Assembly: GCA_026387475.1 (NCBI GenBank)
Contig: JAPLLN010000038.1
Span: forward strand, 1 to 46,462
Direction of reading: 5' to 3'
Length of the DNA: 46,462 nt
Source: Candidatus Omnitrophota bacterium
GTDB lineage: Bacteria; Omnitrophota; Gorgyraeia; Gygaellales; Profunditerraquicolaceae
A model generated the notes under the pieces. That model was not told where the DNA came from, made no database searches, and saw nothing but the letters and a program-made list of their open reading frames with translations. Both the position numbers and the translations under genes were made by a program. Every line of letters begins with the position of its first letter. The stretch's first letter is position 1. Below are positions 1 to 13,180 of this stretch, piece after piece.

Positions 1-561
1 TAAACAGACTGTATCCAGCTTTTGCTTTCTATTCTCCACTACCCATGACTGAAAATCTTTCAGTGTCAGAAGGTCTGGAAAACCATACAAAATATTAATA
101 TTTTTTATTTTCAGGTATTTAGTACTTGCATGCTCTAAAGAAACTATTTGAGCATCTTTTAGTGTAATTTCGAAATCAGTTTTTTTATCGCGACCGCGCA
201 ATATTAGCCATTTAGTAAACTGTCTAACTGACAAAACTTCATTATTATAAGAAGCCCCCAATAAACTACAATAGATTCTATCTTTCAATAACTTTGTATT
301 ATTCACCCAGGGCCATATCGGATTTTCTAATAGATACACCTCGTCTCCATATGACCGAACAAAAATTGGGTTACCATTTCTAAGATTACCTATCCAACCA
401 GCGACAATACATCCAAATATAGCCCATGAGAGTTCAGTCGGCCACTTAAATATTATTAATGAGGCTAATATTAAGGATGCTGTCCATACTTCCCTTAATC
501 TTAAGCTCAACTCCAGGTCTTTACTTAAAAAATCAAAAAATCGATTTATGGTATCCGACAT
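1..561 (-). CDS. Hypothetical membrane protein, AT-rich, partial (3' end runs off the window)
   Basis: Not in the ORF track. Manual translation from ATG at 561 gives 187 codons with no stop (MSDTINRFFDFLSKDLELSLRLREVWTASLILASLIIFKWPTELSWAIFGCIVAGWIG...), with two N-terminal hydrophobic segments. Starts 10 nt after the upstream stop. Confidence 0.7.
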   Translation of the reverse strand, partial: MSDTINRFFDFLSKDLELSLRLREVWTASLILASLIIFKWPTELSWAIFGCIVAGWIGNLRNGNPIFVRSYGDEVYLLENPIWPWVNNTKLLKDRIYCSLLGASYNNEVLSVRQFTKWLILRGRDKKTDFEITLKDAQIVSLEHASTKYLKIKNINILYGFPDLLTLKDFQSWVVENRKQKLDTVCL

Positions 562-571
562 AGAATAATTC

Positions 572-1489
572 TTAGTAATACGAGATGAGCATCTTTTCCA
601 GATTGCCGCCTAAGATTCCTTCTTTAACCTCTTCCGAAAGCTCGAGATTCTGCACTGCCTGTATTGAACTTACTACATCTTTTTTCGCCGGCCAGTCGCT
701 ACCCCATAAAATATGCTTAGGACCTAACAACTCAAGTGCTGCAAGAAAATTAGTTTTAGACTTATCACCGCTAGTATCCACATAAATATTTTTTAAATAA
801 TCCGTAGGGCTGCTTTTCAAATCTTTGACGAAATTCATCCCACGCAGCATCTGGTATGTGGCGTCAAAGCGATGCGTCAAAAACGGGATGACCCCGCCAA
901 AATAAGCAAAGACGAATTTAGTTTTAGAATAATCGCGCAGGATATCCGCCATTAAGAGCTTGCCGATACAAATAGTCGTATCGAAGACGTACTCGATTAC
1001 CGGAGTCAACAAGGGATCCTGCACCCGCTCAAAACCTATTGGGTTTACTATCTGGGAGTGCACGAAAATAGGGATATTTCTACGCTCTGCCTCTCTATAT
1101 ATAGGTAAGAAAGCCGCATCATCCAAGTATTTGCCGCTATAACTGGAGGCGAGGGAAATCGCCTTAAAGCCCAACTCATCAAGCGCCCTTTTCAGCTCAT
1201 TCAGCATATTTTCAGGCTCATCGACCGGCAAAACCGCGGCCCCGATAAATCTTTTAGGATAGCGCTTAATGATCTTAGAGACGTTGTCGTTATAAATCCG
1301 GGCGACTTCTTTAAGGCTCCCTAATTTCAGATGCGCATCTGAGGTAGGATACGTTAAAACCGCCTTGCTGATCCCCGCTTCATCCATAATCCTGGCCTGG
1401 GCTTCGATATCCCCCCAACCCTTATGGAAAAAGTGGGCGTTGCTTATGATCTCATCCGGGAGCCAGTGGCTGTGGCTGTCGATTATCAT
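572..1489 (-). CDS. Amidohydrolase_2 family protein (ACMSD / aromatic-acid decarboxylase-like)
   Basis: IDSHSH (HxH), IFVHS, YVDTS and LWGSDWP motifs; 305 aa. Confidence 0.85.
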   Translation of the reverse strand: MIIDSHSHWLPDEIISNAHFFHKGWGDIEAQARIMDEAGISKAVLTYPTSDAHLKLGSLKEVARIYNDNVSKIIKRYPKRFIGAAVLPVDEPENMLNELKRALDELGFKAISLASSYSGKYLDDAAFLPIYREAERRNIPIFVHSQIVNPIGFERVQDPLLTPVIEYVFDTTICIGKLLMADILRDYSKTKFVFAYFGGVIPFLTHRFDATYQMLRGMNFVKDLKSSPTDYLKNIYVDTSGDKSKTNFLAALELLGPKHILWGSDWPAKKDVVSSIQAVQNLELSEEVKEGILGGNLEKMLISYY

Positions 1490-1881
1490 TTATGCTCCGC
1501 GCTCTTTAAAATTCGCTCGGTCATCTCTCTTTCATAGAGCGCTTTTATTTTCTCCAGCGCCTTATTGCCCAATTCCTTCTGTATCACCTTTTCAATAGCC
1601 TGCAACTTCATGGCCAGAAAGGTATATTCCGGCCTTATTTGTTTGCCGTCGTATTTTAAGGCAAACCCGTCCAGCTCTTTTTCCAGCATATAGGCCTCAA
1701 AACCGGCGAGCAGTTTCTCTGTTCCCTTAGCCTTATTCTGCTTTTTAAGTTCTTTCAAAATAACTTTATCCACCTCTACCTGGGTGAACTTGCGCTCTAT
1801 CTTATCCAAGGCCTCCTTGGTGGTTTTATAGAACCAGACCAAATAACGCCTTTTAAGATTTTTAATATCCTGATTGTGCAT
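1486..1881 (-). CDS. Hypothetical helical protein in the PKS operon
   Basis: 131 aa; stop overlaps the next start by 4 nt and start lies 1 nt after the upstream stop; no motif recognised. Confidence 0.75.
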   Translation of the reverse strand: MHNQDIKNLKRRYLVWFYKTTKEALDKIERKFTQVEVDKVILKELKKQNKAKGTEKLLAGFEAYMLEKELDGFALKYDGKQIRPEYTFLAMKLQAIEKVIQKELGNKALEKIKALYEREMTERILKSAEHK

Positions 1882-1882
1882 T

Positions 1883-2653
1883 TTATTTCCCCGGATGCTG
1901 CTGCTTAAACGGTATGACGGGCGCTACCCACGGCGTCTGCTGGTTGATAATAGCTATTTCCAGCGGGCAGACATTAGCCGGAACAGTAAGCGCAAACTTT
2001 AGCGCATTTTCAATCGCTTCAGTAGACATTAAACGTGAAGTATCCTCGGTGACATTCTTCAGTTTTCCCGTAAGGTCAGTATCGGTGACGCCGGGGAGCA
2101 GCGAAGTAACCTTGATGCCGTAATCGCGTATCTCCCAGAAAAGCCCCTTAAGAAAAGCGCGCAACCCTACTTTTAACGAGCTATAAACTATAAAGGTGCG
2201 CGGGAGCGGATCGCAAAGCGTAGAGCCGGAAACCATATTGATGATGGCGCCGGACTTCTGCTTGATCATATCATTGATCACCAGGCGGATCAGGCGCACA
2301 TATCCCAGATAATTTGTATGCGCTAATTTCTCGAAATCCTCTATCGGCTGCTTCTCGAAAGGATACTGGCTTGAGATCCCGGCATTATTGATCAGGATAT
2401 CGATACGGCCGTATTTTTCCTTGGTCTTATTGACTAGATTCTCAAGGTCTTCTAACTTGGTCACGTCGCACTCTACCGGGAGGACTTCGACTTTATATTT
2501 CTTGGCGATTTCATCCGCGGTTTCTTTTAAAGGCTCGATCTGGCGCGCGGCAATAGCCAGGTTTATCCCTAAGCTTGCTGCGGTAGAAGCCAGGGCTTTA
2601 CCTATTCCGCGGCTTGCTCCGGTGACAATGGCAACCCTTCCTTTTAAATCCAT
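1883..2653 (-). CDS. SDR family oxidoreductase (putative polyketide ketoreductase)
   Basis: TGASRGIG, NNAG and YSSLK (YxxxK) motifs. Confidence 0.9.
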   Translation of the reverse strand: MDLKGRVAIVTGASRGIGKALASTAASLGINLAIAARQIEPLKETADEIAKKYKVEVLPVECDVTKLEDLENLVNKTKEKYGRIDILINNAGISSQYPFEKQPIEDFEKLAHTNYLGYVRLIRLVINDMIKQKSGAIINMVSGSTLCDPLPRTFIVYSSLKVGLRAFLKGLFWEIRDYGIKVTSLLPGVTDTDLTGKLKNVTEDTSRLMSTEAIENALKFALTVPANVCPLEIAIINQQTPWVAPVIPFKQQHPGK

Positions 2654-2668
2654 GGCATTATTCCTTTC

Positions 2669-3112
2669 TTATTTATTCGCTGCTTTCTCGATAGAATCTT
2701 TAAATATCTTTAAATTATCCTTGGAGTGCTTATTGATAAAACCCTCAACCTGTTCGTCATTAAACTTTGCTTTTTCGTCCATCTCAAAATGCTGGATCCA
2801 AACCAACTCCACCCCTTCCGGCTTAGGAGTATATAACCAGACGATTTTCATGTACTTAAAGGGAAATTTCGGCTCCTGTCTTTCAGCATAAGCGAAATAT
2901 TTGTCTTTAAAGAGCAGGCGCCAGGAGACCCAGGACTTGCCTTCATCATCTGTAAGGCGAAAGGTGATTTTATTATCTTTTTTCTCCACTACTTCCGCCT
3001 TCTGATATTCTCCGCCGAATAATTCCGTCCAGCGCGGGATATCATTAGAAATATCGAATACCTTATCGTAAGGCGCGTTAATAATAATCGAGTTGCAAGT
3101 ATGCCCGGCCAT
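2669..3112 (-). CDS. Monodomain polyketide aromatase/cyclase (SRPBCC; TcmN / WhiE-ORFVI type)
   Basis: MAGHTxNSI, NDIxxWxELF, FRLT, WVSWR, PFKYMKIVWLY and WIQHFEM closely follow WhiE ORFVI / TcmN as recalled. Confidence 0.9.
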   Translation of the reverse strand: MAGHTCNSIIINAPYDKVFDISNDIPRWTELFGGEYQKAEVVEKKDNKITFRLTDDEGKSWVSWRLLFKDKYFAYAERQEPKFPFKYMKIVWLYTPKPEGVELVWIQHFEMDEKAKFNDEQVEGFINKHSKDNLKIFKDSIEKAANK

Positions 3113-3114
3113 AA

Positions 3115-3441
3115 TTATTTCTCCTTTCCCATCAGACTCAATAAAATCGCTAAATTCGAATCCTTATCTGCGCTCAATGAATGGGGCGCCCCTGCCGGCA
3201 TAAAGATAAATACGCCCGGGCTCATCCGGATCTTCTTACCCCCTAAAACAAAAATCCCTTTGCCTTTTAAGACCGTTACTGCCGCTTCGCGGGTCGAAGT
3301 ATGCTCGGAAATATCGGTCCCCTTGGCCAGGCACATCAAGGTATAATTTGAGGTCTCGGTCTTAACCAATACCTTGCTGAAAATCCCTTCCTTGGGAAAC
3401 TCCATTAATCTTTTCAAATCTTTAAGTTCGGATTTAATCAT
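3115..3441 (-). CDS. Cupin domain protein (possible TcmJ-like cyclase)
   Basis: HTS..E...VLKGKG and PAGAPH cupin motifs; lies between two cyclase genes. Confidence 0.8.
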   Translation of the reverse strand: MIKSELKDLKRLMEFPKEGIFSKVLVKTETSNYTLMCLAKGTDISEHTSTREAAVTVLKGKGIFVLGGKKIRMSPGVFIFMPAGAPHSLSADKDSNLAILLSLMGKEK

Positions 3442-3443
3442 TA

Positions 3444-4241
3444 TTATAAGATTGCGACTACGCGCGACCAGGCAGCTCCGGTGCGTTTGATCTTGACCGG
3501 AAAACAGATGACCTTAAAACCAAAATCCGGCAAATTCTCCAAGTTCGCGAGGCGCTCAATGTGAATAAACTCACGCTTCCTGCCGTAAAAATGAGCCGGG
3601 TATAAATATTTGATGTCTTTTTTCTCTAAGAATTCCTTAAGCATAAAACGGTACGGCCGGTCTATCCCCATCGTATCCGTGCCGAATATCTTTACACCCC
3701 GATTCAAAAGGTAATCTATGGCCAGTGGGTCTATACCGGGATAATCCGTAAAATATTTAGGGGAGCCGTGCAATTTATCCGCGCCGGTCTGGATCAAGAC
3801 TATATCGTTAGGCTTAAGGGCGTACTTGATCTTTTTTAGAGCCTCTTCTATATCCTGCGGCCCGATAGTTTCCGCAGGTTTCTTGTGGGTCATATCCAGT
3901 TTTACGCCGTCGTTATAACACCAATCCAGCGGGATCTCTTCCGCGGTCTTGGAAGGCCGGTTTTCTGACTTTGAGCCGTAATGAAAAGAGTAATCCAGGT
4001 GCGTTCCCACATGGACCGGGGCATGCACTATCTCCAAAGAAAGGAATTCTTCGTCCGGAAGGTCTTCCTTTTTAAGGATGCGCGCCCCTAACGCGTATTT
4101 TATTTTGCCGAGCAAAGTTTTACCCATGATCACGCGGTTGAATTTCTCCACCCCGGCTTTATGGGAGATGCGCTCGATATCGACCTTATGCACCTCAAAA
4201 GCCTTCTCGTCGATGGGAAGGCTTATATCGATTATCTTCAT
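3444..4241 (-). CDS. Metal-dependent cyclase family protein (kynurenine formamidase fold; DpsY/OxyN-type ring cyclase)
   Basis: HVGTHLDYSFH (HxGTHxDxxxH), GTDTMGID, IERLANL motifs. Confidence 0.88.
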   Translation of the reverse strand: MKIIDISLPIDEKAFEVHKVDIERISHKAGVEKFNRVIMGKTLLGKIKYALGARILKKEDLPDEEFLSLEIVHAPVHVGTHLDYSFHYGSKSENRPSKTAEEIPLDWCYNDGVKLDMTHKKPAETIGPQDIEEALKKIKYALKPNDIVLIQTGADKLHGSPKYFTDYPGIDPLAIDYLLNRGVKIFGTDTMGIDRPYRFMLKEFLEKKDIKYLYPAHFYGRKREFIHIERLANLENLPDFGFKVICFPVKIKRTGAAWSRVVAIL

Positions 4242-4468
4242 TGGCCTATTTTAGACTGAACTACTTTAGCGATATCGCTGATAGTGGAAAACTTAGTGAT
4301 ATCCTTAGGGTTTAACTTAATATTAAACTCCTTGCTTAAGGCAATCACAGTCTCCACCATCTCCGTCGAATCCACGCCTATGGAATCCTGCAAAGACACG
4401 TCGTCTTTAAGCTCTTCCGGCTTGACTCTTAATAATTTTACTAAAACCTCTTTGATCTTATTTTTCAT
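4238..4468 (-). CDS. Acyl carrier protein
   Basis: 76 aa with GVDSTEMV phosphopantetheine attachment motif. Confidence 0.92.
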   Translation of the reverse strand: MKNKIKEVLVKLLRVKPEELKDDVSLQDSIGVDSTEMVETVIALSKEFNIKLNPKDITKFSTISDIAKVVQSKIGQ

Positions 4469-5928
4469 ATTTGCACCTCACCCTTAGTCGCAGCTGCCTC
4501 CCATTTGTTGATACCATCCATGACATCCTTAAAGCAAAGTTTAGCCAACGGATCGAAATCGCTCTCCATGATCCGGTTTATGCGCCCGGGCTTAGAGAAG
4601 AATTCGCGCATGCACCATGAACCCAGGCGGCCTAAGTCTTCAGTGCTCAAATGATCCGTAGGGATAACCGGATGCAGAAAATCCCAGGTGCTGAAATCCA
4701 CTTTTTTAGGATCGACCCACCCTTTCTTTAAAGCGATCCTCCACATCGGCGAATTCGGCGCGGGAGTTACATAACCGACCCAAAGAATATCCGGATCGAC
4801 CTCGTCGGTAAACTCAAAACGCTGCTTGATGATCTCCTCAGTGTCATAATCAAAACCCATCATGATATCCGCGACAATTGCGATATCGTTTTTTCGCAGG
4901 ATCTCGATGGTCTTTTTGATCTGATCCAGAGTGATGCCTTTGGCGATCTTCTTAAGTTCCGATTGCGTAGTGACCTCGATCCCGAAGACGCCCATAAAAA
5001 GACCGTTCTCTTTCATAAGCGGTAAAATCGATTCGCAGTTGACCCAGTCGATGGCGCGGCCTAAAGAAACCCACTTGATCGGATTATTAGACGCCTTTTT
5101 GAGCTCGCAGAATTTCTGCACCCTCTTGGGGTCGACATTAAAATTATCATCCTGAATAACTACGACCTTTACCCCGTATTTTCTATGCAGGAGATTCAAC
5201 TCCTCCATAACCCTTTCCGGAGATTTTGCGCGCCATTTCAAGAAATCCGAAGGCGAGCGCGGGTCAAACTGGTCCCACTCATAACAAAAAGTACAGGCCG
5301 AAGGGCAGCCGCGGGAAGTAACCATATCCACGAACGGCTTCCAGTAAGTATGGCCCACGTATTTATCCATAGGAAACAGATCATACGCCGGAAGCGGGAG
5401 TTTATCTAAATCCATCATCAGCGGCTTATGCGGCCCCATGATGATCTCGCCGTTGACGCGCGAAGTCACGCCACCTACATCTTTAAGAGGCTTATTCTTA
5501 TCTATTGCCTCGATCAGGTCGCCGAAAGACTCTTCTTCTCCCATGACCACAAAATCCACGGCCGGGTTTTCTTCCAAAGTATGCACAGGCATCGCGGAAT
5601 ACCATAAACCCCCGAAGATGATCTTGGTCTTGGGCAGGGCAACCTTGATTTTAACCGCCGCGTCCTTAAAATGCCTTAGAACTCCGTAACCACCGTATCC
5701 GTGCAACTGTTCGCCCATGACCACAACGTCCGGATTGATAGCCTTGACCTTTTCAACTAGAGCGTCCATCGGGATCTGGTCGGCTTTTCCGTCGATAACC
5801 GCGACATCAGCATAGCCCCTGGTTTCTCTGACGTAAGCCGCCCAATGGGCATAGAGCTGATTAGGCGACCTGTGAATTCCATGGGTAGCCCATGCGCCGA
5901 CTTTCGGCATAACAAATAAAATCTTCAT
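4465..5928 (-). CDS. Cobalamin-dependent (class B) radical SAM enzyme
   Basis: N-terminal B12-binding domain (KIIFGG, VVMGEEE) followed by SRGCPSACTFC (CxxxCxxC), DDNF and FGIE. Confidence 0.92.
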   Translation of the reverse strand: MKILFVMPKVGAWATHGIHRSPNQLYAHWAAYVRETRGYADVAVIDGKADQIPMDALVEKVKAINPDVVVMGEQLHGYGGYGVLRHFKDAAVKIKVALPKTKIIFGGLWYSAMPVHTLEENPAVDFVVMGEEESFGDLIEAIDKNKPLKDVGGVTSRVNGEIIMGPHKPLMMDLDKLPLPAYDLFPMDKYVGHTYWKPFVDMVTSRGCPSACTFCYEWDQFDPRSPSDFLKWRAKSPERVMEELNLLHRKYGVKVVVIQDDNFNVDPKRVQKFCELKKASNNPIKWVSLGRAIDWVNCESILPLMKENGLFMGVFGIEVTTQSELKKIAKGITLDQIKKTIEILRKNDIAIVADIMMGFDYDTEEIIKQRFEFTDEVDPDILWVGYVTPAPNSPMWRIALKKGWVDPKKVDFSTWDFLHPVIPTDHLSTEDLGRLGSWCMREFFSKPGRINRIMESDFDPLAKLCFKDVMDGINKWEAAATKGEVQI

Positions 5929-5940
5929 CGTTCTTCTCCT

Positions 5941-7173
5941 TTAGGGTTTCTCTACGACCAGAGCGGAATTTATTCCGCCGCGGCCGCGCGAGATGATCAA
6001 TGCCTTCTCTATTCTTTTTTCTTTGGCTTCCTTACCTATATTATAATTCAAAGACTTATCCGCCGGCTCATCCAGATTGACGGTCGGAGGAATAAGGCTG
6101 TGCTCCATGGCTAAGACCGTTGTGATCATATCCACGGCGCCTGACGCGCCCAGAAGATTTCCGAACATGGACTTGGGGCAGCTGACCGGGATATCCTTAG
6201 CCCTTGCGCCGAAAACACTTTTTATGGCGGCGATCTCCGAGTTATCCCAGATATCCACGGCTAAACCGTCTAAACTTATGTAATCTATTTTATCCGCGCT
6301 CACACCAGCGTCATTCAACGCCATATTAATGGCGCGCGCTAATTCTTTACCGTCGGAAGCAGGCTTGATCCTGTCTACCGCGTCGCAGCTGGTCCCGTAA
6401 CCCGAGATCAAAGCCTGGATGACCGCTTTGCGCGACTTTGCCCGCTCAACGTTCTCCATGACCACGATCCCCGAGCCTTCTCCGATGACAAATCCGTCGC
6501 GTTTCTTATCAAAGGGACGGTATGCTTCAGACGGATGCGCGTTATTTTTTGAAAGCGCGCCGTAAGTATTACAGCACAACAATGCGTAAGGAGTAACCGG
6601 GGCTTCCATGCCGCCGGCAAGGATCATATTTAATTTACTTTTGGATAAAACCTTGCGCGCATACCCTAAGGCCATAAGAGAGCTCGCCCGGTCAGCCACT
6701 ACAGTCTTACTAAAACCTTTAATGCCGTAATAGATGGAGACCTGGCCCTGGGGCGCTGCCGGAAACCACGCCGAGGCCATATAAGGAGAGACCCCTTCGC
6801 GTCCCTCGATGTAAAGGTCGCGTAATTCCGTCTCGGCATAAAGCCATCCGCCGATGGCATTACCTAGAAATATCCCCACGAGATTAGGGTCTTCGTTCTT
6901 TATATCGATGCCCGCGTCCTGAAGCGCCATTTCAGATGCGATCAGGGCCATATGCGAGAAGGCGTCGATCTTTTTTAAGAGCCTCTCCGAGACGTGGGTG
7001 TATTTTTCCAGGTCGTCGATCTGTCCGGCGATATGCGACGGATACTTTGAGGCGTCAAAACGCGTGATCTCTTTGACAAACGACCTTCCGGATTTAATAT
7101 TTGCCCAGAACTGGCGCTTGCCTATTCCGGAGGGAGCGACTATGCCTGTACCCGTGATCGCGATTTTTTCCAT
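5941..7173 (-). CDS. Type II PKS chain-length factor (KS-beta)
   Basis: KS fold without the catalytic Cys (VVADRASSLMAL vs CLF VAEQAGGLDAL); VSPYMASAWFPAAPQGQVSI matches the CLF signature; abuts KS-alpha with a 1-nt overlap. Confidence 0.9.
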   Translation of the reverse strand: MEKIAITGTGIVAPSGIGKRQFWANIKSGRSFVKEITRFDASKYPSHIAGQIDDLEKYTHVSERLLKKIDAFSHMALIASEMALQDAGIDIKNEDPNLVGIFLGNAIGGWLYAETELRDLYIEGREGVSPYMASAWFPAAPQGQVSIYYGIKGFSKTVVADRASSLMALGYARKVLSKSKLNMILAGGMEAPVTPYALLCCNTYGALSKNNAHPSEAYRPFDKKRDGFVIGEGSGIVVMENVERAKSRKAVIQALISGYGTSCDAVDRIKPASDGKELARAINMALNDAGVSADKIDYISLDGLAVDIWDNSEIAAIKSVFGARAKDIPVSCPKSMFGNLLGASGAVDMITTVLAMEHSLIPPTVNLDEPADKSLNYNIGKEAKEKRIEKALIISRGRGGINSALVVEKP

Positions 7174-8435
7174 TAGCCACCAAACCTTTTCAAAATTAAA
7201 GCGGAGTGAATCCCCGAAAACCCACTTGAGGTTTTAAGAATAATATTTACTTTTTTTGCGATCGCCTGATTGGGTATGTAGTAGAGATCACACTGCGGAT
7301 CCTTCTCCTCCTGATTTATCGTAGGAGGAAGGATATTCTTCTCAAAGATCATGGCGCAGATGGTAAACTCTACGGCGTTTGCCGCTGCCAACGGATGCCC
7401 GATCATAGATTTAAGCGAGCTGATGGGCAACTTATAAGCATAGTCTCCGAAGATCGCCTTGTAGGCATTGGTCTCAAAGATATCATTCATGCGTGTAGAC
7501 GATCCATGGGCATTGATGTAATCTATTTCCGCGGGTTTAATATTCGCATCTTTTAAACCCAAAGTTATGCAATTCTTCATCGCGTCCCCGTCGCCGGGGA
7601 GATCAGTCATATGAAAGGCGTTGCAGCTGGTCCCGAAACCCATGACCTCGCAATAAATGTGGGCATTGCGCTTGAGGGCGTGATTCAACTCCTCCAAAAC
7701 CAGAAGCCCGGCGCCCTCGGAGAGGACAAAACCGTCGCGTTTGTTATCAAATGGCCGGGACGCCTTTTCCGGCTCATCGTTACGCACTGACAAAACATTT
7801 ACTACGTCGAAAGCGCCGAAGGTGATCGGCGTAATGGGCGCTTCTGCCGCGCCACAGATCATAATATCCTGCTCACCGTCCTGTATGGTCTCCAGCCCAA
7901 AACCCATAGAGTCGGTTCCGGCGGTACATCCCGTAGAAAGGGTATTGCAGATACCTTTAAATCCGTATTTAGAACTAAGTTCGATGGAAGGCGTATTGAA
8001 CATCGCCGCATCATACAAATCAGGCCTGACCAAAGAGGGATCGATCGGCTTTTTGCCGTCGTCGGTGACCAGGGCGAATTCCTCTTCCATATATTTTGTC
8101 CCGCAGATAGCATTTGCGAGGCAGACTCCGATACGCTCCGGGTCTTCTTTAGCGAAATCGATGCCGCTGTCCTTTATCGCCATATTCCCCGCCACGACTC
8201 CGAACTGCACGTATCTATCCATGCGCATCGCTTCTGCGTGCGTAAGTCCTAACTTAAAAGGATCGAAATCGCGCACCTCTGCGGCGATCTTGGTATTAAA
8301 GACCGAAACGTCGAATCCGTCGACCCGCTTGATCCCGGATACGCCTCCGGACATCCCCTTCCAGGCATTATCTTTGCCGATTCCGTTCGGGGAAACCACC
8401 CCTATACCCGTAATAACAACTCTGCGCTTAGGCAT
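7173..8435 (-). CDS. Type II PKS ketosynthase alpha
   Basis: LSTGCTAGTDS (KS-alpha STGCTSG type, not FabF TACA), NAHGSST, KSMIGH, SGFSG. Confidence 0.92.
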   Translation of the reverse strand: MPKRRVVITGIGVVSPNGIGKDNAWKGMSGGVSGIKRVDGFDVSVFNTKIAAEVRDFDPFKLGLTHAEAMRMDRYVQFGVVAGNMAIKDSGIDFAKEDPERIGVCLANAICGTKYMEEEFALVTDDGKKPIDPSLVRPDLYDAAMFNTPSIELSSKYGFKGICNTLSTGCTAGTDSMGFGLETIQDGEQDIMICGAAEAPITPITFGAFDVVNVLSVRNDEPEKASRPFDNKRDGFVLSEGAGLLVLEELNHALKRNAHIYCEVMGFGTSCNAFHMTDLPGDGDAMKNCITLGLKDANIKPAEIDYINAHGSSTRMNDIFETNAYKAIFGDYAYKLPISSLKSMIGHPLAAANAVEFTICAMIFEKNILPPTINQEEKDPQCDLYYIPNQAIAKKVNIILKTSSGFSGIHSALILKRFGG

Positions 8436-8438
8436 GAA

Positions 8439-9044
8439 TTATCTTTTCTCCTCTTCCTTTGCTCTGCTTACCTTAAATACAATGTGCCCCCCGTCCGGAC
8501 AAGTCACCGTATCCAGGGTATCAGGGTTCTTCATAAAGAAAAACTTGGCGCCGAAATTTAAAGCAAATAAAGCCGGAAAGGCGCAGTGAAAAGCCGCGCC
8601 GCAAAAACCCGGAATGCATTTCAAGCCCGTTGTCTCCCATTTATCGCCGACTTTATAGCCAAAAACACATTTGCCGTCAGACTTAAATACTTCAATGACC
8701 ATATTTTTCGGTTTAGGCCCCTTCCAATTCAAGTCCTTAGCCGCGAATTCCGGCTTACCCTCTTTATCGAGGATCTCGGCCTTAAATTCAAGCTTGCCTC
8801 CGTCGGGACAGGTAACTAATAAGGAACGCTGGTTATCCCGGAAAGGGAATTTTGCTCCGAAACTAAGCGCGTAAATTACCGGGAATAACGCATGCGCCAA
8901 GCCTAAGCAGAAAAACTTCGGCGGATGAGTAAAATCTTCCAAAATAAGTTCATCCCCGATCTTATAACCATGATAACAATGCCCCTCCACCTTATTTACC
9001 GTAAGCTTTAATTTAGGAAAAGGGGAATCGATCTTTTCGCTCAT
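8439..9044 (-). CDS. Tandem-duplicated TIGR04076-like Cys-rich protein
   Basis: Two internal repeats of G.C..GYK.GD...FC..A....FP...AL.FGAKF...VTCPDGG. Confidence 0.8.
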   Translation of the reverse strand: MSEKIDSPFPKLKLTVNKVEGHCYHGYKIGDELILEDFTHPPKFFCLGLAHALFPVIYALSFGAKFPFRDNQRSLLVTCPDGGKLEFKAEILDKEGKPEFAAKDLNWKGPKPKNMVIEVFKSDGKCVFGYKVGDKWETTGLKCIPGFCGAAFHCAFPALFALNFGAKFFFMKNPDTLDTVTCPDGGHIVFKVSRAKEEEKR

Positions 9045-9045
9045 C

Positions 9046-10053
9046 TTAGTCGTATAGTCCTTTAGTAAAATTCAAAAGTTCATCTTTGGTAAAAAACTGT
9101 CCGGTCTCTTCAACCGCGTGCACCAATTCCACTAATTTAGTATTCAAGGGGGCCTTCTGCCCGGTTTTCCTAGCCAGGGCGACAAATGCGCCGTTAATAA
9201 AATCGACCTCCGAGCGCTTGCCTCTTTTGATGCTCTGCAGGATAGATCCGTACAGCGGGTCTTTGCTTAATTTAAGCATTATGCCGGAGAATATCCCCGC
9301 TGCCTGCGCCGGGGGGATACAGATCATTTTAGTGATATTTTCCAACGGGAAACCCGGAAGGGAGACTAAATTTATCCCCGACTTGCAGATAATATCAAAA
9401 CCTTCCTTCCAGATACCGATGCTGATACGGCTTACATCCAGGTCGCCGAACGCCTCCTGCATGCTCAAGCCCAATATCGCGGGGATACAGTTGTTGGCGT
9501 TGACAAAAACTTTCATATATTTCATCCCCATGATGTCATCGCTGATCGTCGTCGGGAAGGCCTTATCCAGGACAAGGCTTACATCGATCAATTTCTGGTC
9601 CGTTCCTTTTTCAAAAGGCCTGCCGATGATCCAGCCGCCTTCGAAATTATGCACGATCAGGCCCGGCTCAATATAGGTCGAACCAAACATCACGATACTT
9701 GAGATTATTCTGTCTTTAGGGATGTATTTTGCCGTTATTTCGTCGGCAGCCACACCATTCTGCGTAGTCAGGACTATCGAGTCTTTTAAAAAAGCGGCGT
9801 TATCTTTCAGCGCGCACTCGATATCCTGGGTCTTGACCGCGAGTATTGCCAGGTCCGGCTTAGAGACCACCTGGCTGTGCGCCGTAACCGACACCTTATG
9901 CTCCCGGCGCGCTCCGGAGACCTTGATACCGGATGAATTTATGGCATCGACCGCATCTTTCCGGCCGACCAGGTAGACATCTTCACCTTTTTCTTTTAAG
10001 TAAGCCGCGACTAAGCCCCCGATCGCTCCGGAGCCGATGACTACTATCTTCAT
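9046..10053 (-). CDS. panE: Ketopantoate reductase family protein (PanE/ApbA)
   Basis: IGSGAIGG, AVKT, TQNG, KVFVN, SILQS, RSEVDFING motifs. Confidence 0.85.
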   Translation of the reverse strand: MKIVVIGSGAIGGLVAAYLKEKGEDVYLVGRKDAVDAINSSGIKVSGARREHKVSVTAHSQVVSKPDLAILAVKTQDIECALKDNAAFLKDSIVLTTQNGVAADEITAKYIPKDRIISSIVMFGSTYIEPGLIVHNFEGGWIIGRPFEKGTDQKLIDVSLVLDKAFPTTISDDIMGMKYMKVFVNANNCIPAILGLSMQEAFGDLDVSRISIGIWKEGFDIICKSGINLVSLPGFPLENITKMICIPPAQAAGIFSGIMLKLSKDPLYGSILQSIKRGKRSEVDFINGAFVALARKTGQKAPLNTKLVELVHAVEETGQFFTKDELLNFTKGLYD

Positions 10054-10316
10054 TTGCAGTTTTTGGGGAAACCGTATTTTTTGTAATCGAACCCAGCCTG
10101 CTCCAACAGCCGGACCATCATGCTGTAAAACGGGGAGGGGACATCGGAGAAGAAAGCGCCGACCACATCCTGCTCTTCAACCGCTTCTGCGCTCCGGGAT
10201 CTGGCAAGTTCTTCGGCCTTTTTGGTCACCGCTACTTCGGTTATCCGGCGGTGAAAAACCGGGATCTTGACTATCATCAGCTTTAATTTTTCTTGAGTCT
10301 TGGCATCCCAATTCAT
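10050..10316 (-). CDS. Small DUF2621 / PCP_red-like helical protein, first gene of the PKS operon
   Basis: W......L......IP.F.R......KAEE.A pattern; AGAGGG-like RBS upstream. Confidence 0.65.
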   Translation of the reverse strand: MNWDAKTQEKLKLMIVKIPVFHRRITEVAVTKKAEELARSRSAEAVEEQDVVGAFFSDVPSPFYSMMVRLLEQAGFDYKKYGFPKNCK

Positions 10317-10362
10317 GCGTTAACCCTCTATGATAATTAAGGTTACTTCCCTCTTCCGGAAT

Positions 10363-10380
10363 ATAGTAAAATTTTACTAT
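10363..10380. promoter_or_regulatory. Perfect 18-bp palindrome, putative operator
   Basis: ATAGTAAAA|TTTTACTAT, just downstream of the -10 box of the PKS operon promoter. Confidence 0.7.
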
Positions 10381-10393
10381 TCCAATTTTATTA

Positions 10394-10421
10394 ATTATAC
10401 CTCCTAGAACGGGCTTGTCAA
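10394..10421 (-). promoter_or_regulatory. Sigma70 promoter of the PKS operon
   Basis: TTGACA (10421-10416), 16-nt spacer, TATAAT (10399-10394); both hexamers are perfect. Confidence 0.8.
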
Positions 10422-10438
10422 GTAAAAATCTTATAAGT

Positions 10439-10951
10439 TTACAGGGCTTTGATGAGACGGGAGAGAAACTGGTATTCTGCCTCCAGCATCTGGAGGTTGT
10501 GTTCAAGGATGAGGGTATGCGGAGAAGACTTCTTTTTCAGGGAAACTATCATCTGGTTAAGCTCGCGGGAGAGGCCTTTGAGGATGACCATCCTGCCGCG
10601 CATGCGGCGCTGCGCTATTTCAGGGTCGATCTTATCTAAAAAATATAAACTTAGGTCCAGGCTGAATTGAGGCCGCTTAAAATTCAAAAAGCTCTTGCTT
10701 AAGAGTTCGTCAAAGCGGAGTTTTCCTTTTGGGGTGAGGCAGTAGACGTGGCGTTCGGGCCTGCGCGTCGGTTTCAAAGCGCGCTTTGCGACCAGCCCCC
10801 TCTTCTCCAGTATGTTCAGGGGATAATATATGGATTTCAGGTCTACTCCGGCGAAGATAGAGAGGATCTTTTTGATCTCTTGTTTTATTTCGTAGCCGTG
10901 TTTAGGGCTCTGGCGCAAAAGCCCTAATAATAAAAGCTCCTGCTCGATCAC
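10439..10951 (-). CDS. PadR family transcriptional regulator
   Basis: LLGLL...PKHGYEI, SIYYPL..LE..GLV, YCLTPKG wHTH with C-terminal helical extension; GTG start overlaps the accA stop. Confidence 0.9.
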   Translation of the reverse strand: MIEQELLLLGLLRQSPKHGYEIKQEIKKILSIFAGVDLKSIYYPLNILEKRGLVAKRALKPTRRPERHVYCLTPKGKLRFDELLSKSFLNFKRPQFSLDLSLYFLDKIDPEIAQRRMRGRMVILKGLSRELNQMIVSLKKKSSPHTLILEHNLQMLEAEYQFLSRLIKAL

Positions 10952-11898
10952 TCTGCCACCACCCCCATCTTGCGGAATTTTTTATAGCGCTCTTTTAATA
11001 GATCCTGCGGGCTTAGTTGTTTCAACTCGCTTAAATTTCTTAACAGGGTTTCTTTTATATTAGCGGCGGTCTTGGCGGGATCGCGGTGCGCTCCACCCAG
11101 AGGCTCGTGGACGACCTCATCGATGATCCCCATCTTTAACAGGCCTTCGGCGGTAAGCTTTAATACCTCGGCTGCTTCCGGCGCTTTCGCTCCGTTCTTC
11201 CAGAGTATCGCAGCACACCCCTCGGGAGAAATAACCGAATAATAAGCATTCTCTAAAACGCAGACCCTGTCGGCTATCCCTACTCCCAGCGCCCCTCCGG
11301 AACCGCCTTCGCCGATGACTACCGCGACGATCGGCACGCCAATACGGGTCATCTCCCTTAGGTTAAGGGCGATCGCCTGGGACTGCCCCCTCTCTTCGGC
11401 TCCGATCCCCGGATACGCTCCGGGGGTATCGATAAAGACCACTATCGGCAGGTTACTCTCCTGGGCCAACTGCATCACCCTTAAAGCCTTACGGTACCCT
11501 TCAGGGTGGGCGCAGCCAAAGTTCCTCTTCAGGTTCTCCTTGGTATCCCTGCCTTTTTGGTGGCCGATCACTGCGATCTTCTGATTATCCAGTTTAGCCA
11601 GGCCGCAGATCATCGCTTTATCGTCGGAGAAGAGCCGGTCACCGTGCAATTCAATAAAATCGGTCATGAGCATCCCGATATAATCTAATGTATACGGCCT
11701 AAGCGGATGGCGCGCCAGCTGGACCTTTTGCCAGGCGCTAAGGCTGCTGTAAGTATCTTTCTTTAAATGTTCAAGCTTCTCCTCCAGCCTTTTGACTTCG
11801 GAAGAAAGATCGATCTTCTTATCGGAGATAAAATTCTTCAATTCCGAGATCTTCTTTTCTAATTCAACGATAGGTTTTTCAAAATCTAGTCCGGCCAT
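10948..11898 (-). CDS. accA: Acetyl-CoA carboxylase carboxyltransferase alpha subunit
   Basis: LDFEKPI, ARHPLRP, IDTPGAYPG, GEGGSGGALG, YSVISPEGCAAILW. Confidence 0.97.
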   Translation of the reverse strand: MAGLDFEKPIVELEKKISELKNFISDKKIDLSSEVKRLEEKLEHLKKDTYSSLSAWQKVQLARHPLRPYTLDYIGMLMTDFIELHGDRLFSDDKAMICGLAKLDNQKIAVIGHQKGRDTKENLKRNFGCAHPEGYRKALRVMQLAQESNLPIVVFIDTPGAYPGIGAEERGQSQAIALNLREMTRIGVPIVAVVIGEGGSGGALGVGIADRVCVLENAYYSVISPEGCAAILWKNGAKAPEAAEVLKLTAEGLLKMGIIDEVVHEPLGGAHRDPAKTAANIKETLLRNLSELKQLSPQDLLKERYKKFRKMGVVAE

Positions 11899-11901
11899 AG
11901 T

Positions 11902-12717
11902 TTAATCGACTATCGTGACTTCCGTCCCGGTAGGGACAATGGTATATAATTCTTCTACGTCGGAGTTCCCCAGCCTTACGCAACCGGCGGTTACCTGTTT
12001 TCCCAGGTTTTGCGGCTCGGTGGTCCCGTGTATCCCGTAACCGGCAAGGTCAAATCCCATCCAGCGCGTGCCCAGCACATTATCCGTGCTCCCCGCGGGG
12101 ATCACCGCCCCGGCTTTAAACCAGGTCGGGTTGACCAGTTTATTGGTTATTTTATAAGTCCCCACCGGAGTGGAATTATTCTTTCCGGTTGAGACGATGT
12201 AGACCTTGATCACTTCCTCGTCGGATTTAAGGGTGAGCGTATTCTGGGATTTATCGACGAGTATGCTAAACGGCGCGTTCCAGACTTTGATCTTTCTTCC
12301 CGGCATGATCTTAGAATCCGTCAGGTTATTGCTCTTAGCAATCAACTCCGGGGTGGTTTTGAATTCCCGCGCGATTTTTGTAAGGGTATCCCCGGGTTTT
12401 ATTTCATAGGCAACGCTCTTAGGGGTAACCGCGGGAGAAAAAAGCAGTTTTATATTCAACTCTTCGACTTTTCTCTGCCAGTTAAGCGCGTCATTTGAAT
12501 TGGTGAATTCGTTAAGCAGTTTTACATAAGCGTCTCTTGACCCCAGCAGGTCTCCCTTGTTCTGCAGATCCCTGGCCTGATTCAACATCCCGGACAAAGA
12601 AACGCCGCTTTTACCTTTGGTCAAAGGGCAAAGCCCCCTCCCGCATTTTAAGAATACGAATAGCCCTAATAAAACAGCTGCGCAAACAGCGACGATGATC
12701 AAGATTTTCTTGTTCAA
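11902..12717 (-). CDS. L,D-transpeptidase with LysM domain and N-terminal anchor
   Basis: YEIKPGDTLTKIA (LysM); YGIHGT...TAGCVRL (YkuD catalytic motif). Confidence 0.92.
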   Translation of the reverse strand: MNKKILIIVAVCAAVLLGLFVFLKCGRGLCPLTKGKSGVSLSGMLNQARDLQNKGDLLGSRDAYVKLLNEFTNSNDALNWQRKVEELNIKLLFSPAVTPKSVAYEIKPGDTLTKIAREFKTTPELIAKSNNLTDSKIMPGRKIKVWNAPFSILVDKSQNTLTLKSDEEVIKVYIVSTGKNNSTPVGTYKITNKLVNPTWFKAGAVIPAGSTDNVLGTRWMGFDLAGYGIHGTTEPQNLGKQVTAGCVRLGNSDVEELYTIVPTGTEVTIVD

Positions 12718-12733
12718 GTATATCCTCCTTATC

Positions 12734-13180
12734 CTAATAAGCTACTACGGCGATGATTATTCCCAGTATTAAACCGACGATTACTTCGATAGGGGTGTGT
12801 CCCACAAGCTCGCGCAGGCGCATCTCCTGGATCTTACCCTGCCAATAAATGTCTTCCATTACCTTATTTAATATGCGCGCTTGTTTCCCGGCGGAGCGGC
12901 GCACTCCCTGGGCGTCAAACATTACTACGATGGCAAAAGCCGCGGCGAGGGCAAAGTAGGCGCTGGAGAAACCCTGTTCAATGCCGACGGCAGTAGCCAG
13001 GCACGAGGCGCCGGCTGCGTGCGATGAGGGCATCCCTCCGGAACCGATAAACCAGCGGAAATCGAACCTCTTATGCTGGATGACCCCGATGACCAGCTTG
13101 ATGGTCTGGGTAATGAACCACGCGGATATCGTGGTCATCAATATTTTGTTGCGGGCTATCGCTACGAATACTTCCTTCAT
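12734..13180 (-). CDS. Divergent PAP2 family protein (DUF212)
   Basis: SGGMPSSHAA, VMFDAQGVRR..GKQA..LN, ELVGHTP. Confidence 0.93.
   Translation of the reverse strand: MKEVFVAIARNKILMTTISAWFITQTIKLVIGVIQHKRFDFRWFIGSGGMPSSHAAGASCLATAVGIEQGFSSAYFALAAAFAIVVMFDAQGVRRSAGKQARILNKVMEDIYWQGKIQEMRLRELVGHTPIEVIVGLILGIIIAVVAY

Follow-up and report, generated by a model that had tools for sequence, protein, structure and literature searches.

Aromatic type II polyketide synthase (PKS) pathways are established outside the actinomycetes and in strict anaerobes, the products named being clostrubin, wexrubicin, the dendrubins, AQ-256 and the pyxidicyclines (PMC7693217). According to the same text, the den cluster of the strict anaerobe Dendrosporobacter quercicolus contains neither a methyltransferase gene nor oxidase/oxygenase genes, and loss of the terminal carboxyl group has been proposed for the dendrubin and the pyxidicycline pathways alike (PMC7693217). 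The present work deals with a 13-gene operon in a stretch of 46,462 nucleotides from a Candidatus Omnitrophota bacterium (contig JAPLLN010000038.1), referred to below as the window. A first interpretation made from the letters alone (the sequence-only reading) had taken this operon for an aromatic type II PKS system located in an apparently anaerobic, non-actinobacterial genome. Our analysis leads us to consider it likely that the operon encodes a functional, oxygen-independent aromatic type II polyketide pathway of anaerobic Omnitrophota, inherited mostly vertically within one class and controlled through a dedicated repressor site.

The window resembles the den, ant (AQ-256, Photorhabdus) and pcy (Pyxidicoccus fallax) clusters in that a ketosynthase alpha (KS-alpha), a chain-length factor (CLF), an acyl carrier protein (ACP) and a PF04199 (OxyN-type) cyclase are found together outside the actinomycetes. 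The likeness to den extends to the lack of an oxygenase gene and to the terminal decarboxylation proposed there, so that the missing oxygenases, which had been put forward as a distinctive trait, have a precedent (PMC7693217). In the case of ant, the AntD protein is the second-best solved relative of the window KS-alpha; in that of pcy, the nearest representative from outside the Omnitrophota (P0125, 55% identical to the window KS-alpha) is 64% identical to a Pyxidicoccus fallax locus. The differences are equally clear. The aromatase of the window is a single 147-aa domain of the WhiE/TcmN type, its KS-alpha is only 49-54% identical to those of the myxobacterial, gammaproteobacterial and Desulfobacter loci, and ten outgroup loci (L021-L027, L035, L053 and L096) carry no homolog of the PanE, TIGR04076, B12-dependent radical S-adenosylmethionine (SAM) or Amidohydro_2 proteins within 10 kb. 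The window operon joins a WhiE/TcmN-type aromatase and an OxyN-type cyclase with an accessory set of PanE, a tandem TIGR04076 protein, a BchE-like enzyme and an Amidohydro_2 protein, a set for which no precedent was found.

The existence of KS-CLF pairs in this phylum is itself not new, as a catalogue published in 2023 in Microbial Genomics lists Candidatus Omnitrophica among 14 phyla with curated pairs and reports a clade, largely non-actinobacterial, close to the FabF root (PMC10132072). An analysis of the clusters from Omnitrophica, be it of accessory genes, distribution, regulation or product, was not found there. A genomic survey of the Omnitrophota contains no occurrence of the word 'polyketide' (PMC10066038), and a 2026 Genome Biology paper on KS evolution none of 'phyla', 'anaerob-' or 'candidat-'. 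Cluster composition, spread in the phylum, conserved operator candidate and product were not found described in the literature consulted, the supplementary tables of which may list these records.

The assignment to aromatic type II PKSs is carried in the first place by the KS-alpha and CLF proteins. The Cys-His-His triad is kept in all ten aligned Omnitrophota KS-alphas, and the active-site Cys of the corresponding CLFs is replaced by Arg or Lys, with both His residues gone, in all ten. At the same position three Streptomyces CLFs have Gln, and the second KS of Bacillus and Azospirillum loci shows the ADRASS motif of the window CLF. The best matches of KS-alpha in the PDB are the actinorhodin KS (373.7 bits) and AntD (369.9 bits), with FabF at 349 bits or less; the protein is 45-48% identical to KS genes of annotated plasmid-borne type II PKS loci, and about 45% identical to Streptomyces KS-alphas.

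Phylogenetic trees were calculated with three Streptomyces plasmid clusters (annotated as 'ketosynthase chain-length factor', aromatase/cyclase and TcmI cyclase), the type II PKS loci of Bacillus bombysepticus and Azospirillum brasilense, and E. coli FabF as references; five other KS-family genes of the host genome and unnamed representatives from a library of 1.84 billion proteins were included, the named set being one without aryl-polyene, ladderane or cispentacin sequences. In the careful tree (IQ-TREE, 46 rows; supports as ultrafast bootstrap/SH-aLRT), one clade (100/100) unites the Omnitrophota CLFs (98/98), those of the three Streptomyces clusters and the second KS from the loci of Bacillus and Azospirillum, and another (100/96) unites the Omnitrophota KS-alphas (100/99) with the KS-alphas of Streptomyces, Bacillus and Azospirillum. 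E. coli FabF, the FabF-like gene of the host genome (contig C40) and the KS genes of two further contigs (C12 and C16) lie outside both clades, and a quick tree of 75 rows agrees on these placements. The aromatic type II PKS character proposed initially is therefore borne out by the KS-alpha/CLF phylogeny together with the WhiE/TcmN-type aromatase, and neither a grouping of the KS pair with FabF or with the other KS pairs of the genome nor a gene-for-gene match to a characterised cluster was found. Taken together, the encoded set comprises a KS-alpha with its triad, an adjacent CLF lacking the Cys (a pair of the heterodimer type), both within the clades of annotated aromatic systems, a discrete ACP with its serine, a WhiE/TcmN-type aromatase/cyclase and a PF04199 cyclase, and it includes no oxygenase gene.

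It could be argued that the KS/CLF pair makes a non-aromatic chain, such as a lipid, a polyene or a small cyclised acid, in the manner of aryl-polyene, ladderane-associated or cispentacin-type heterodimers, and that the presumed cyclases act otherwise. The two proteins score high on the FabF equivalog model (458.9 and 380.3 bits, under the cut-off of 493.75); on the cispentacin AmcF model (cut-off 325) their scores are moderate, at 160 and 152 bits. In addition, NaPDoS2 assigns many of the 'CLF' hits from outside the actinobacteria to type II fatty acid synthases, according to the catalogue of 2023 (PMC10132072), and a 2026 preprint describes a KS/CLF-like heterodimer from a ladderane producer. 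Nevertheless, the trees place both proteins in clades of annotated aromatic systems, away from FabF and from the C12 and C16 KS loci with their FabA-like genes; the operon contains neither a dehydratase nor an enoyl reductase gene; and, at E <= 1e-20, the SRPBCC protein has no PDB matches other than WhiE and TcmN aromatase/cyclases. The B12 radical SAM protein reaches 69.5 bits on the ladderane-type B12 model, the cut-off of which is 360. On this evidence, a non-aromatic product is very unlikely, and the aromatic assignment is preferred.

The two further KS pairs of the genome, on contigs C12 (locus L103, 3379-6463) and C16 (locus L104, 8323-14913), each consist of one KS that keeps the Cys and one KS-fold protein without it, the Cys-less partners carrying SSAFCAG and STGMCSS. 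Both loci also contain a FabA-like dehydratase gene and one for a flavoprotein similar to amine oxidases and phytoene desaturases, to which C16 adds a short-chain dehydrogenase/reductase (SDR) gene and a third, divergent KS. These KS genes group apart from FabF and from the aromatic clades, and the loci could represent lipid or polyene-type systems.

With regard to ring formation, PDB matches of the aromatase (gene 10; gene numbers as in Table 1) at E <= 1e-20 are limited to WhiE-type polyketide cyclases (3tl1, 3tvr and 2kf2; E about 1e-26) and TcmN (E about 1e-22). The duplicated, two-domain TcmN aromatase form is not present, gene 10 encoding one SRPBCC domain with 22% identity to a 310-aa Azospirillum SRPBCC protein. 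Homology shows gene 10 to encode a first-ring aromatase, of the kind whose substrates are unreduced chains. The gene 8 product, which has the features of OxyN-type PF04199 cyclases, is 47% identical to a 'cyclase family protein' of the Bacillus bombysepticus type II PKS locus and 37-42% identical to the products of open reading frames (ORFs) in myxobacterial, Desulfobacter and gammaproteobacterial loci (L021, L022, L024-L026), one of them from Pyxidicoccus fallax. The PDB entries closest to the gene 13 product are those of ACMSD, 5-carboxyvanillate decarboxylase and gamma-resorcylate decarboxylase, with E values from 1e-26 to 1e-17.

The WhiE and Tcm systems of Streptomyces share with the window the single-domain aromatase/cyclase, for which WhiE-type proteins and TcmN are the best PDB matches. 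TcmJ is a cupin, and the position of the small cupin gene beside the aromatase gene presumably recalls that of TcmJ in the Tcm cluster. Unlike these systems, the window includes no TcmI-type cyclase and no flavin adenine dinucleotide hydroxylase among its 13 ORFs (Pfam, E <= 0.01); moreover, its KS-alpha is about 45% identical to theirs, and its apparently anaerobic host has a genome of only about 1.3-1.5 Mb.

Among the putative tailoring enzymes, the cobalamin-binding radical SAM protein (gene 6) deserves particular attention. Methylation is the commonest chemistry among cobalamin radical SAM enzymes, most members being methyltransferases. The best curated model for gene 6 is BchE (204.6 bits; cut-off 481.35), followed by HpnJ (158.6 bits) and, lower still, by the methyltransferase models. 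The alignment to BchE covers almost the whole length, from residue 3 to 432 and from model position 2 to 416 of 497; the CxxxCxxC motif is kept. BchE, the anaerobic Mg-protoporphyrin monomethylester cyclase, is an example of oxygen-free oxidation by an enzyme of the cobalamin radical SAM class (PMC13598231). Gene 6 differs from it in scoring far below the 481-bit cut-off and in having no tetrapyrrole genes nearby.

In one lineage (L004, 15063-16535 and 2062-3549; L005, 4172-5644; L013, 4444-5925) the B12 radical SAM gene shares only 50-53% identity with that of the window and heads the cluster, beside the DUF2621-like gene and an extra 156-aa gene without family; in L004 a second such B12 radical SAM gene follows downstream.

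The remaining oxidoreductases are less easily placed. The SDR encoded by gene 11 is 28-31% identical to E. coli FabG and, to the same degree, to three ketoreductases of Streptomyces clusters; given these equal identities, assignment as a C-9 ketoreductase was dropped as undecidable. In the tandem TIGR04076 protein, each half contains an invariant Cys, an invariant His and a C-P-D-G motif in the alignment, from which a metal or redox module is probable. Its structural model (pLDDT, the predicted local distance difference test score, 79) gave no match in a Foldseek search of the PDB at E <= 0.001, and 107 at E <= 10; the Atlas search returned only Omnitrophota TIGR04076 clusters. A paper that mentions TIGR04076 goes no further than guessing that it has a redox or iron-cluster role. 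In two loci of family f30 (L009, 5978-7624, 548 aa; L014, 12358-13998, 546 aa) a single ORF encodes PanE and TIGR04076 together, and two other genomes of that family keep them separate. The predicted complex of both proteins scored 0.00, a result that amounts to no verdict and counts neither way, and the fusion in L009 and L014 is the only hint of a possible joint action. Finally, the PNP_UDP_1 gene often found beside the cluster has uridine and purine nucleoside phosphorylases and 5'-methylthioadenosine nucleosidase as its best models, all under their cut-offs.

The window corresponds to contig C11 of a 1.26-Mb metagenome-assembled genome (MAG) in 118 contigs that is 81.8% complete. More than 120 proteins are 84-99% identical to its KS-alpha, and all named sources are Candidatus Omnitrophica/Omnitrophota bacteria, in agreement with the non-actinobacterial host proposed at the outset. 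The acetyl-CoA synthase CdhC is encoded, and neither COX1 (heme-copper oxidase) nor cytochrome bd was found in the assembly at this level of completeness. The combination of CdhC and no terminal oxidase, which fits the acetogen-like anaerobic classes described for the phylum in the survey (PMC10066038), lets the genome look anaerobic, as had been suggested. The claim that the operon contains no oxygenase, exporter, malonyl-CoA:ACP transacylase or phosphopantetheinyl transferase (PPTase) holds for its 13 ORFs, in which no family of oxygenases, transporters, acyltransferases or PPTases was matched (E <= 0.01; window only). It fares less well when extended beyond them: an AcpS-type PPTase (C95) and two FabD-type malonyl transferases (C40, where the gene adjoins the FabF-like gene of the genome, and C65) are encoded elsewhere, and the absence of an exporter is a minority trait among related loci.

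The distribution of the cluster was determined in a sample of 401 genomes of the phylum (340 of them high-quality), with E <= 1e-150 as the threshold for KS-alpha orthologs. Such orthologs, always in single copy and 62-88% identical, occur in 121 genomes (117 of the high-quality ones), which accords with the retained cluster of the sequence-only reading. The cluster is found in 49 of the 60 genomes of the window's family, and all ortholog-bearing genomes except one (G002) belong to its class. For the comparison of gene order, 14 loci from sampled genomes and 80 from named records were collected, of which 91 remained after the removal of three duplicates and 48 span the interval from PanE to Amidohydro_2. 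A syntenic core of about 11 genes runs through these 48 complete loci. KS-alpha, CLF, ACP, metal cyclase and aromatase are present in every one of them, and the other cluster genes in the numbers given in Table 1. Beyond the genes of the window, the loci include a major facilitator superfamily (MFS) transporter gene (37 loci) and, as accessory genes, PNP_UDP_1 (29), CBM_11-like (21) and AMP-ligase (6) genes. Among the 44 loci with the B12 enzyme gene, 33 have it between CLF and ACP and 11 at another place. Of the 51 loci in which both the aromatase and the SDR gene are seen, 40 carry the MFS gene (PF07690) between the two and 11 lack it; in the window there is a 15-bp gap at that place, and tblastn found no copy elsewhere in the assembly.

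Outside the sampled genomes, the full cluster type is also found, with 64-70% KS identity, in MAGs labelled Dehalococcoidales (L030, L031, L061, L093), Thermodesulfobacteriota (L034, L086) and Syntrophaceae (L039). Records labelled Planctomycetales or Planctomycetia (L069, L095, L060) were compared with L001, L011 and L012: two proteins of L069 are 100% identical to those of L001, and L069 and L095, both labelled Planctomycetales, match contigs of genomes placed in the window's phylum. The NCBI labels of such MAGs are thus not a safe guide to the host range of the cluster. The next relatives, at 49-54% KS identity, come from Vitiosangium, Pyxidicoccus, a Polyangia MAG, two Gammaproteobacteria MAGs, an Enterobacterales MAG, Desulfobacter and Pseudoalteromonas luteoviolacea, and have in common with the window only KS, CLF and, in some, ACP, metal cyclase and a weak SDR match. 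Overall, descent of the cluster within the window's class appears to have been mostly vertical.

Upstream of the first gene, the intergenic region contains a full-consensus sigma-70-type promoter, the sole 12/12 match among 15 promoter-like sites in positions 1-12800, a total that is not above that of shuffled sequences (mean 18.6). Thirteen bases downstream of its -10 box lies a perfect palindrome with the half-sites TAGT and ACTA 8 nt apart, which occurs only once in the 1.26-Mb genome even when up to 2 mismatches are allowed. Of the 91 non-duplicate related loci, 45 share it letter for letter and 53 have it with at most one mismatch. Where the coordinates of the first gene are known, all but one or two sites are located about 8-155 bp upstream of the first cluster gene, including loci in which that gene is an AMP-ligase (L008, L009); one exception is L078, with the palindrome about 1.8 kb upstream of the DUF2621-like gene. 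The palindrome is missing from the ten outgroup loci, from the group labelled Dehalococcoidales, Thermodesulfobacteriota and Syntrophaceae, from the lineage of L003-L005 and L013 with the extra 156-aa gene, from L011 and L095 (2 mismatches) and from short contigs. Since a non-coding 18-mer stays exact while the neighbouring proteins fall to 40-80% identity, and since a zero-loop A/T hairpin would make a poor RNA element, the palindrome is best read as a candidate protein-binding operator. The adjacent PadR-family regulator is the obvious candidate to bind it. The consensus of PadR operators is ATGT-N8-ACAT, and the spacing of 8 nt between the half-sites may recall that arrangement.

From this set of genes we infer the product type, the chain length and the roles of the B12 radical SAM, PanE and TIGR04076 proteins along the following lines. 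The genome's own AcpS-type PPTase would prime the ACP, and a FabD-type transferase would load malonate. KS-alpha and CLF would then build an unreduced poly-beta-ketone, which the aromatase and the metal cyclase would fold into a polyphenol; the Amidohydro_2 enzyme would strip the terminal carboxylate without oxygen. Reductions may be carried out by the SDR and by the pair of PanE and TIGR04076 proteins. The cobalamin radical SAM enzyme would perform a C-methylation or another oxygen-free radical step, a BchE-like oxidation being, by analogy, the more interesting possibility, and the PNP_UDP_1 protein may remove the 5'-deoxyadenosine left by the radical SAM reaction. In most relatives the product would be exported by the MFS pump, the gene for which would have been lost in the window. 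Transcription would start from the consensus promoter, and binding of a PadR-type repressor to the 18-bp palindrome would probably control it. The product may serve as an antibiotic, a pigment or a protectant against oxygen or redox stress; clostrubin, for its part, helps anaerobes to tolerate oxygen. A bolder and unlikely proposal is that much of one class of the Omnitrophota, a phylum of ultra-small bacteria, makes a new structural class of aromatic polyketides without oxygen, with a BchE-like enzyme replacing flavin or antibiotic biosynthesis monooxygenase (ABM) oxygenases in an oxidative or ring-forming step, PanE and tandem TIGR04076 forming an undescribed redox tailoring module, and an exported product that is central in dealing with hosts, competitors or oxygen at redox boundaries.

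Several observations weigh against a functional oxygen-independent aromatic pathway. No product, transcript or protein of the cluster has been seen. In the PDB search, KS-alpha scores only about 25 bits above FabF, and CLF alone scores 291.7 bits on FabF structures and 252.3 on the actinorhodin CLF; as these pairwise scores do not decide the matter, the assignment rests on the trees and the accessory genes. Gene 6 is under the BchE cut-off and has no close solved relative, which makes its chemistry a guess, and the SDR is not attributable to any polyketide ketoreductase type. For the PanE, TIGR04076 and DUF2621-like proteins no precedent was found in characterised type II PKS clusters; encoded before the KS, and beside an AMP-ligase in some loci, they could serve starter-unit supply instead of tailoring. 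The cupin could in principle be a dioxygenase. The PadR gene is present in only 24 of 48 complete loci, and its binding to the palindrome is putative. As to inheritance, both trees place G002, a genome that belongs to a different class, within the class of the window, so that inheritance is not purely vertical. Lastly, G143 has a decayed cluster (L006, C1:425400-445300), in which CLF ends after 93 codons: its DUF2621-like, PanE and TIGR04076 genes are present together with an intact KS-alpha gene, and the exact 18-bp palindrome is still there; ACP, cyclases, SDR and Amidohydro_2 were not found within 10 kb.

The last two points would also fit an ordinary secondary-metabolite island acquired horizontally, or a decaying relic without present function, as would the missing MFS exporter of the window and the related full clusters in MAGs labelled as other taxa. 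Against this, the 13 ORFs are intact and tightly coupled, the GC content of the cluster (0.42-0.50) is in the range of that of the remaining window (0.46-0.53), the neighbours are housekeeping genes with flanks common to two families, and the promoter and the operator candidate are perfectly kept. Considering in addition the high share of cluster-bearing genomes in the window's family and the unreliable taxon labels of the MAG records concerned, an island or relic has little chance of being the right explanation, and a functional pathway is retained as the preferred one.

In the sample of 401 genomes, the 121 with the PKS cluster and the 117 with MqnA/MqnD show no overlap, and MenB is found in 31 (full-score), 26 of which also have the cluster; the pattern follows family lines and may reflect phylogeny only. 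The proposal that the cluster, in lineages lacking the futalosine route, supplies a membrane quinone with its aromatic head group or yields some other primary redox cofactor, and is thus part of core metabolism and not the source of a secreted natural product, could appeal to this exclusivity, to the housekeeping-like conservation of the cluster and to a host genome in which MqnA/D and MenB were not found, yet three NuoH-family genes and a MenA-like prenyltransferase gene beside a polyprenyl synthase gene are present, but it is set aside as scarcely probable on account of the coexistence with ordinary menaquinone synthesis in those 26 genomes and of a loose link to the MenA-like prenyltransferase (homologs at E <= 1e-30 in only 29 of the 121 cluster genomes, and in 36 cluster-free ones), the MFS gene inside most clusters pointing to export and the Mqn exclusivity tracking family boundaries. 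The cofactor that the sequence-only reading had suggested as a product is weakened by the same MenB and prenyltransferase counts. The oxygen-independent aromatic pathway remains the favoured interpretation.

The prenyltransferase in question, on contig C97 (locus L101, 3111-6185), is a MenA-like member of the UbiA family (best model 117.5 bits, under cut-off). Its neighbours are a polyprenyl synthase, a pyridine-nucleotide-disulfide oxidoreductase, DoxX and a CbiMQO cobalt transporter, and its homologs (E <= 1e-30) occur in 65 of the 401 genomes, none of which has MqnA/D.

The Omnitrophota are widespread and mostly uncultured, with genomes often of 1-2 Mb. A single-copy pathway of 10 kb in about 30% of the sampled species, with the exact operator candidate in almost half of the related loci, is likely to matter to their biology. 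The compact set of 11-13 genes free of oxygenases lends itself to the study of oxygen-free aromatic polyketide tailoring, and the tandem TIGR04076, DUF2621-like and 131-aa proteins gain a pathway context that can be tested.

Table 1. Genes and regulatory elements of the operon and its upstream region. Families were assigned with Pfam and NCBIfam (Pfam hits counted at E <= 0.01); fractions refer to the 48 complete loci.
Feature	Position	Strand	Remarks
Gene 1, DUF2621-like/PCP_red-like small protein, 88 aa	10050..10316	-	23 and 17 bits, both under cut-off (DUF2621 cut-off 27.7); 41/48
Gene 2, PanE/ApbA-family NAD(P)H oxidoreductase, 335 aa	9046..10053	-	Pfam 113 and 60 bits; TIGR00745 175.6 bits (cut-off 141)
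Gene 3, tandem TIGR04076 protein, 201 aa	8439..9044	-	two stretches, 95 bits (cut-off 33); 46/48
Gene 4, KS-alpha, 420 aa, Cys-His-His triad	7173..8435	-	ketoacyl synthase family; STGCTAG, AHGSS, GHPLAA; 48/48
Gene 5, CLF, 410 aa	5941..7173	-	ketoacyl-synthase fold; Cys to Arg (ADRASS), both His gone; 1-bp overlap with KS-alpha gene; 48/48
Gene 6, cobalamin-binding radical SAM enzyme, 487 aa	4465..5928	-	B12-binding and Radical_SAM; CPSACTFC at residue 208; 44/48
Gene 7, ACP, 76 aa, GVDS serine motif	4238..4468	-	PP-binding, 46.4 bits; 48/48
Gene 8, PF04199 metal-dependent cyclase, 265 aa, motif HVGTHLD..FH	3444..4241	-	102 bits; 48/48
Gene 9, small cupin, 108 aa, accessory gene	3115..3441	-	Cupin_2; 8/48
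Gene 10, single-domain SRPBCC aromatase/cyclase, WhiE/TcmN type, 147 aa	2669..3112	-	Polyketide_cyc2 (PF10604), PF03364; 48/48
Gene 11, SDR oxidoreductase, 256 aa	1883..2653	-	46/48
Gene 12, Lys/Glu-rich protein, 131 aa	1486..1881	-	no family match in Pfam/NCBIfam; 33/48
Gene 13, Amidohydro_2 protein, 305 aa, probable non-oxidative decarboxylase	572..1489	-	Pfam and PDB relatives
PadR-family regulator, directly upstream of cluster	10439..10951	-	52 bits; anywhere in locus in 24/48
AccA (acetyl-CoA carboxylase carboxyltransferase alpha)	10948..11898	-	4-bp overlap with PadR ORF; adjacent in 19/48
Sigma-70-type promoter, TTGACA-16 nt-TATAAT, 12/12 consensus	10394..10421	-	in the 122-bp gap between PadR gene and gene 1
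Perfect 18-bp palindrome ATAGTAAAATTTTACTAT	10363..10380		9 + 9 nt, 100% complementary, no spacer; between -10 box and start codon; candidate operator

The list of 13 genes given by the sequence-only reading agrees with the Pfam and NCBIfam assignments, the DUF2621 match being the weak one. The ORFs follow each other on the minus strand with gaps of -4, 1, 3, -1, 12, -4, -4, 2, 2, 15, 1 and -4 bp, and all are intact. A 14th ORF (1-561), which leaves the window at its edge, has no counterpart in any of the 48 complete related loci, and the operon is accordingly taken to end at 572 with this ORF outside the cluster. With regard to expression, no RNA data set containing the window was found; its DNA is present in freshwater and lake metagenomes of three studies. 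Three metatranscriptome contig sets and one DNA run yielded 0, 4 and 2 short pieces of 20-47 nt, 90-95% alike and running into unlike sequence, which are conserved fragments of other organisms and say nothing on expression.

Further upstream, on the same strand, PadR and accA are followed by a YkuD/LysM transpeptidase gene and a DUF212 gene; PadR, AccA and YkuD flank the cluster both in L001, of the window's family, and in L011, of another family (f32). The remaining window encodes MnmE, a Mur-ligase-family protein, PurH, elongation factor G, a lysine aminomutase-like radical SAM protein and a chorismate-binding enzyme, and no mobility genes were seen in it, so the housekeeping setting noticed at the outset is confirmed by these neighbours. 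AccA is presumed to supply malonyl-CoA as the extender unit, its membership in the pathway being putative. The stop codon of accA overlaps the GTG start codon of the PadR gene by 4 bp (10948-10951), and the malonyl-CoA-forming subunit and the candidate cluster regulator may be co-transcribed.

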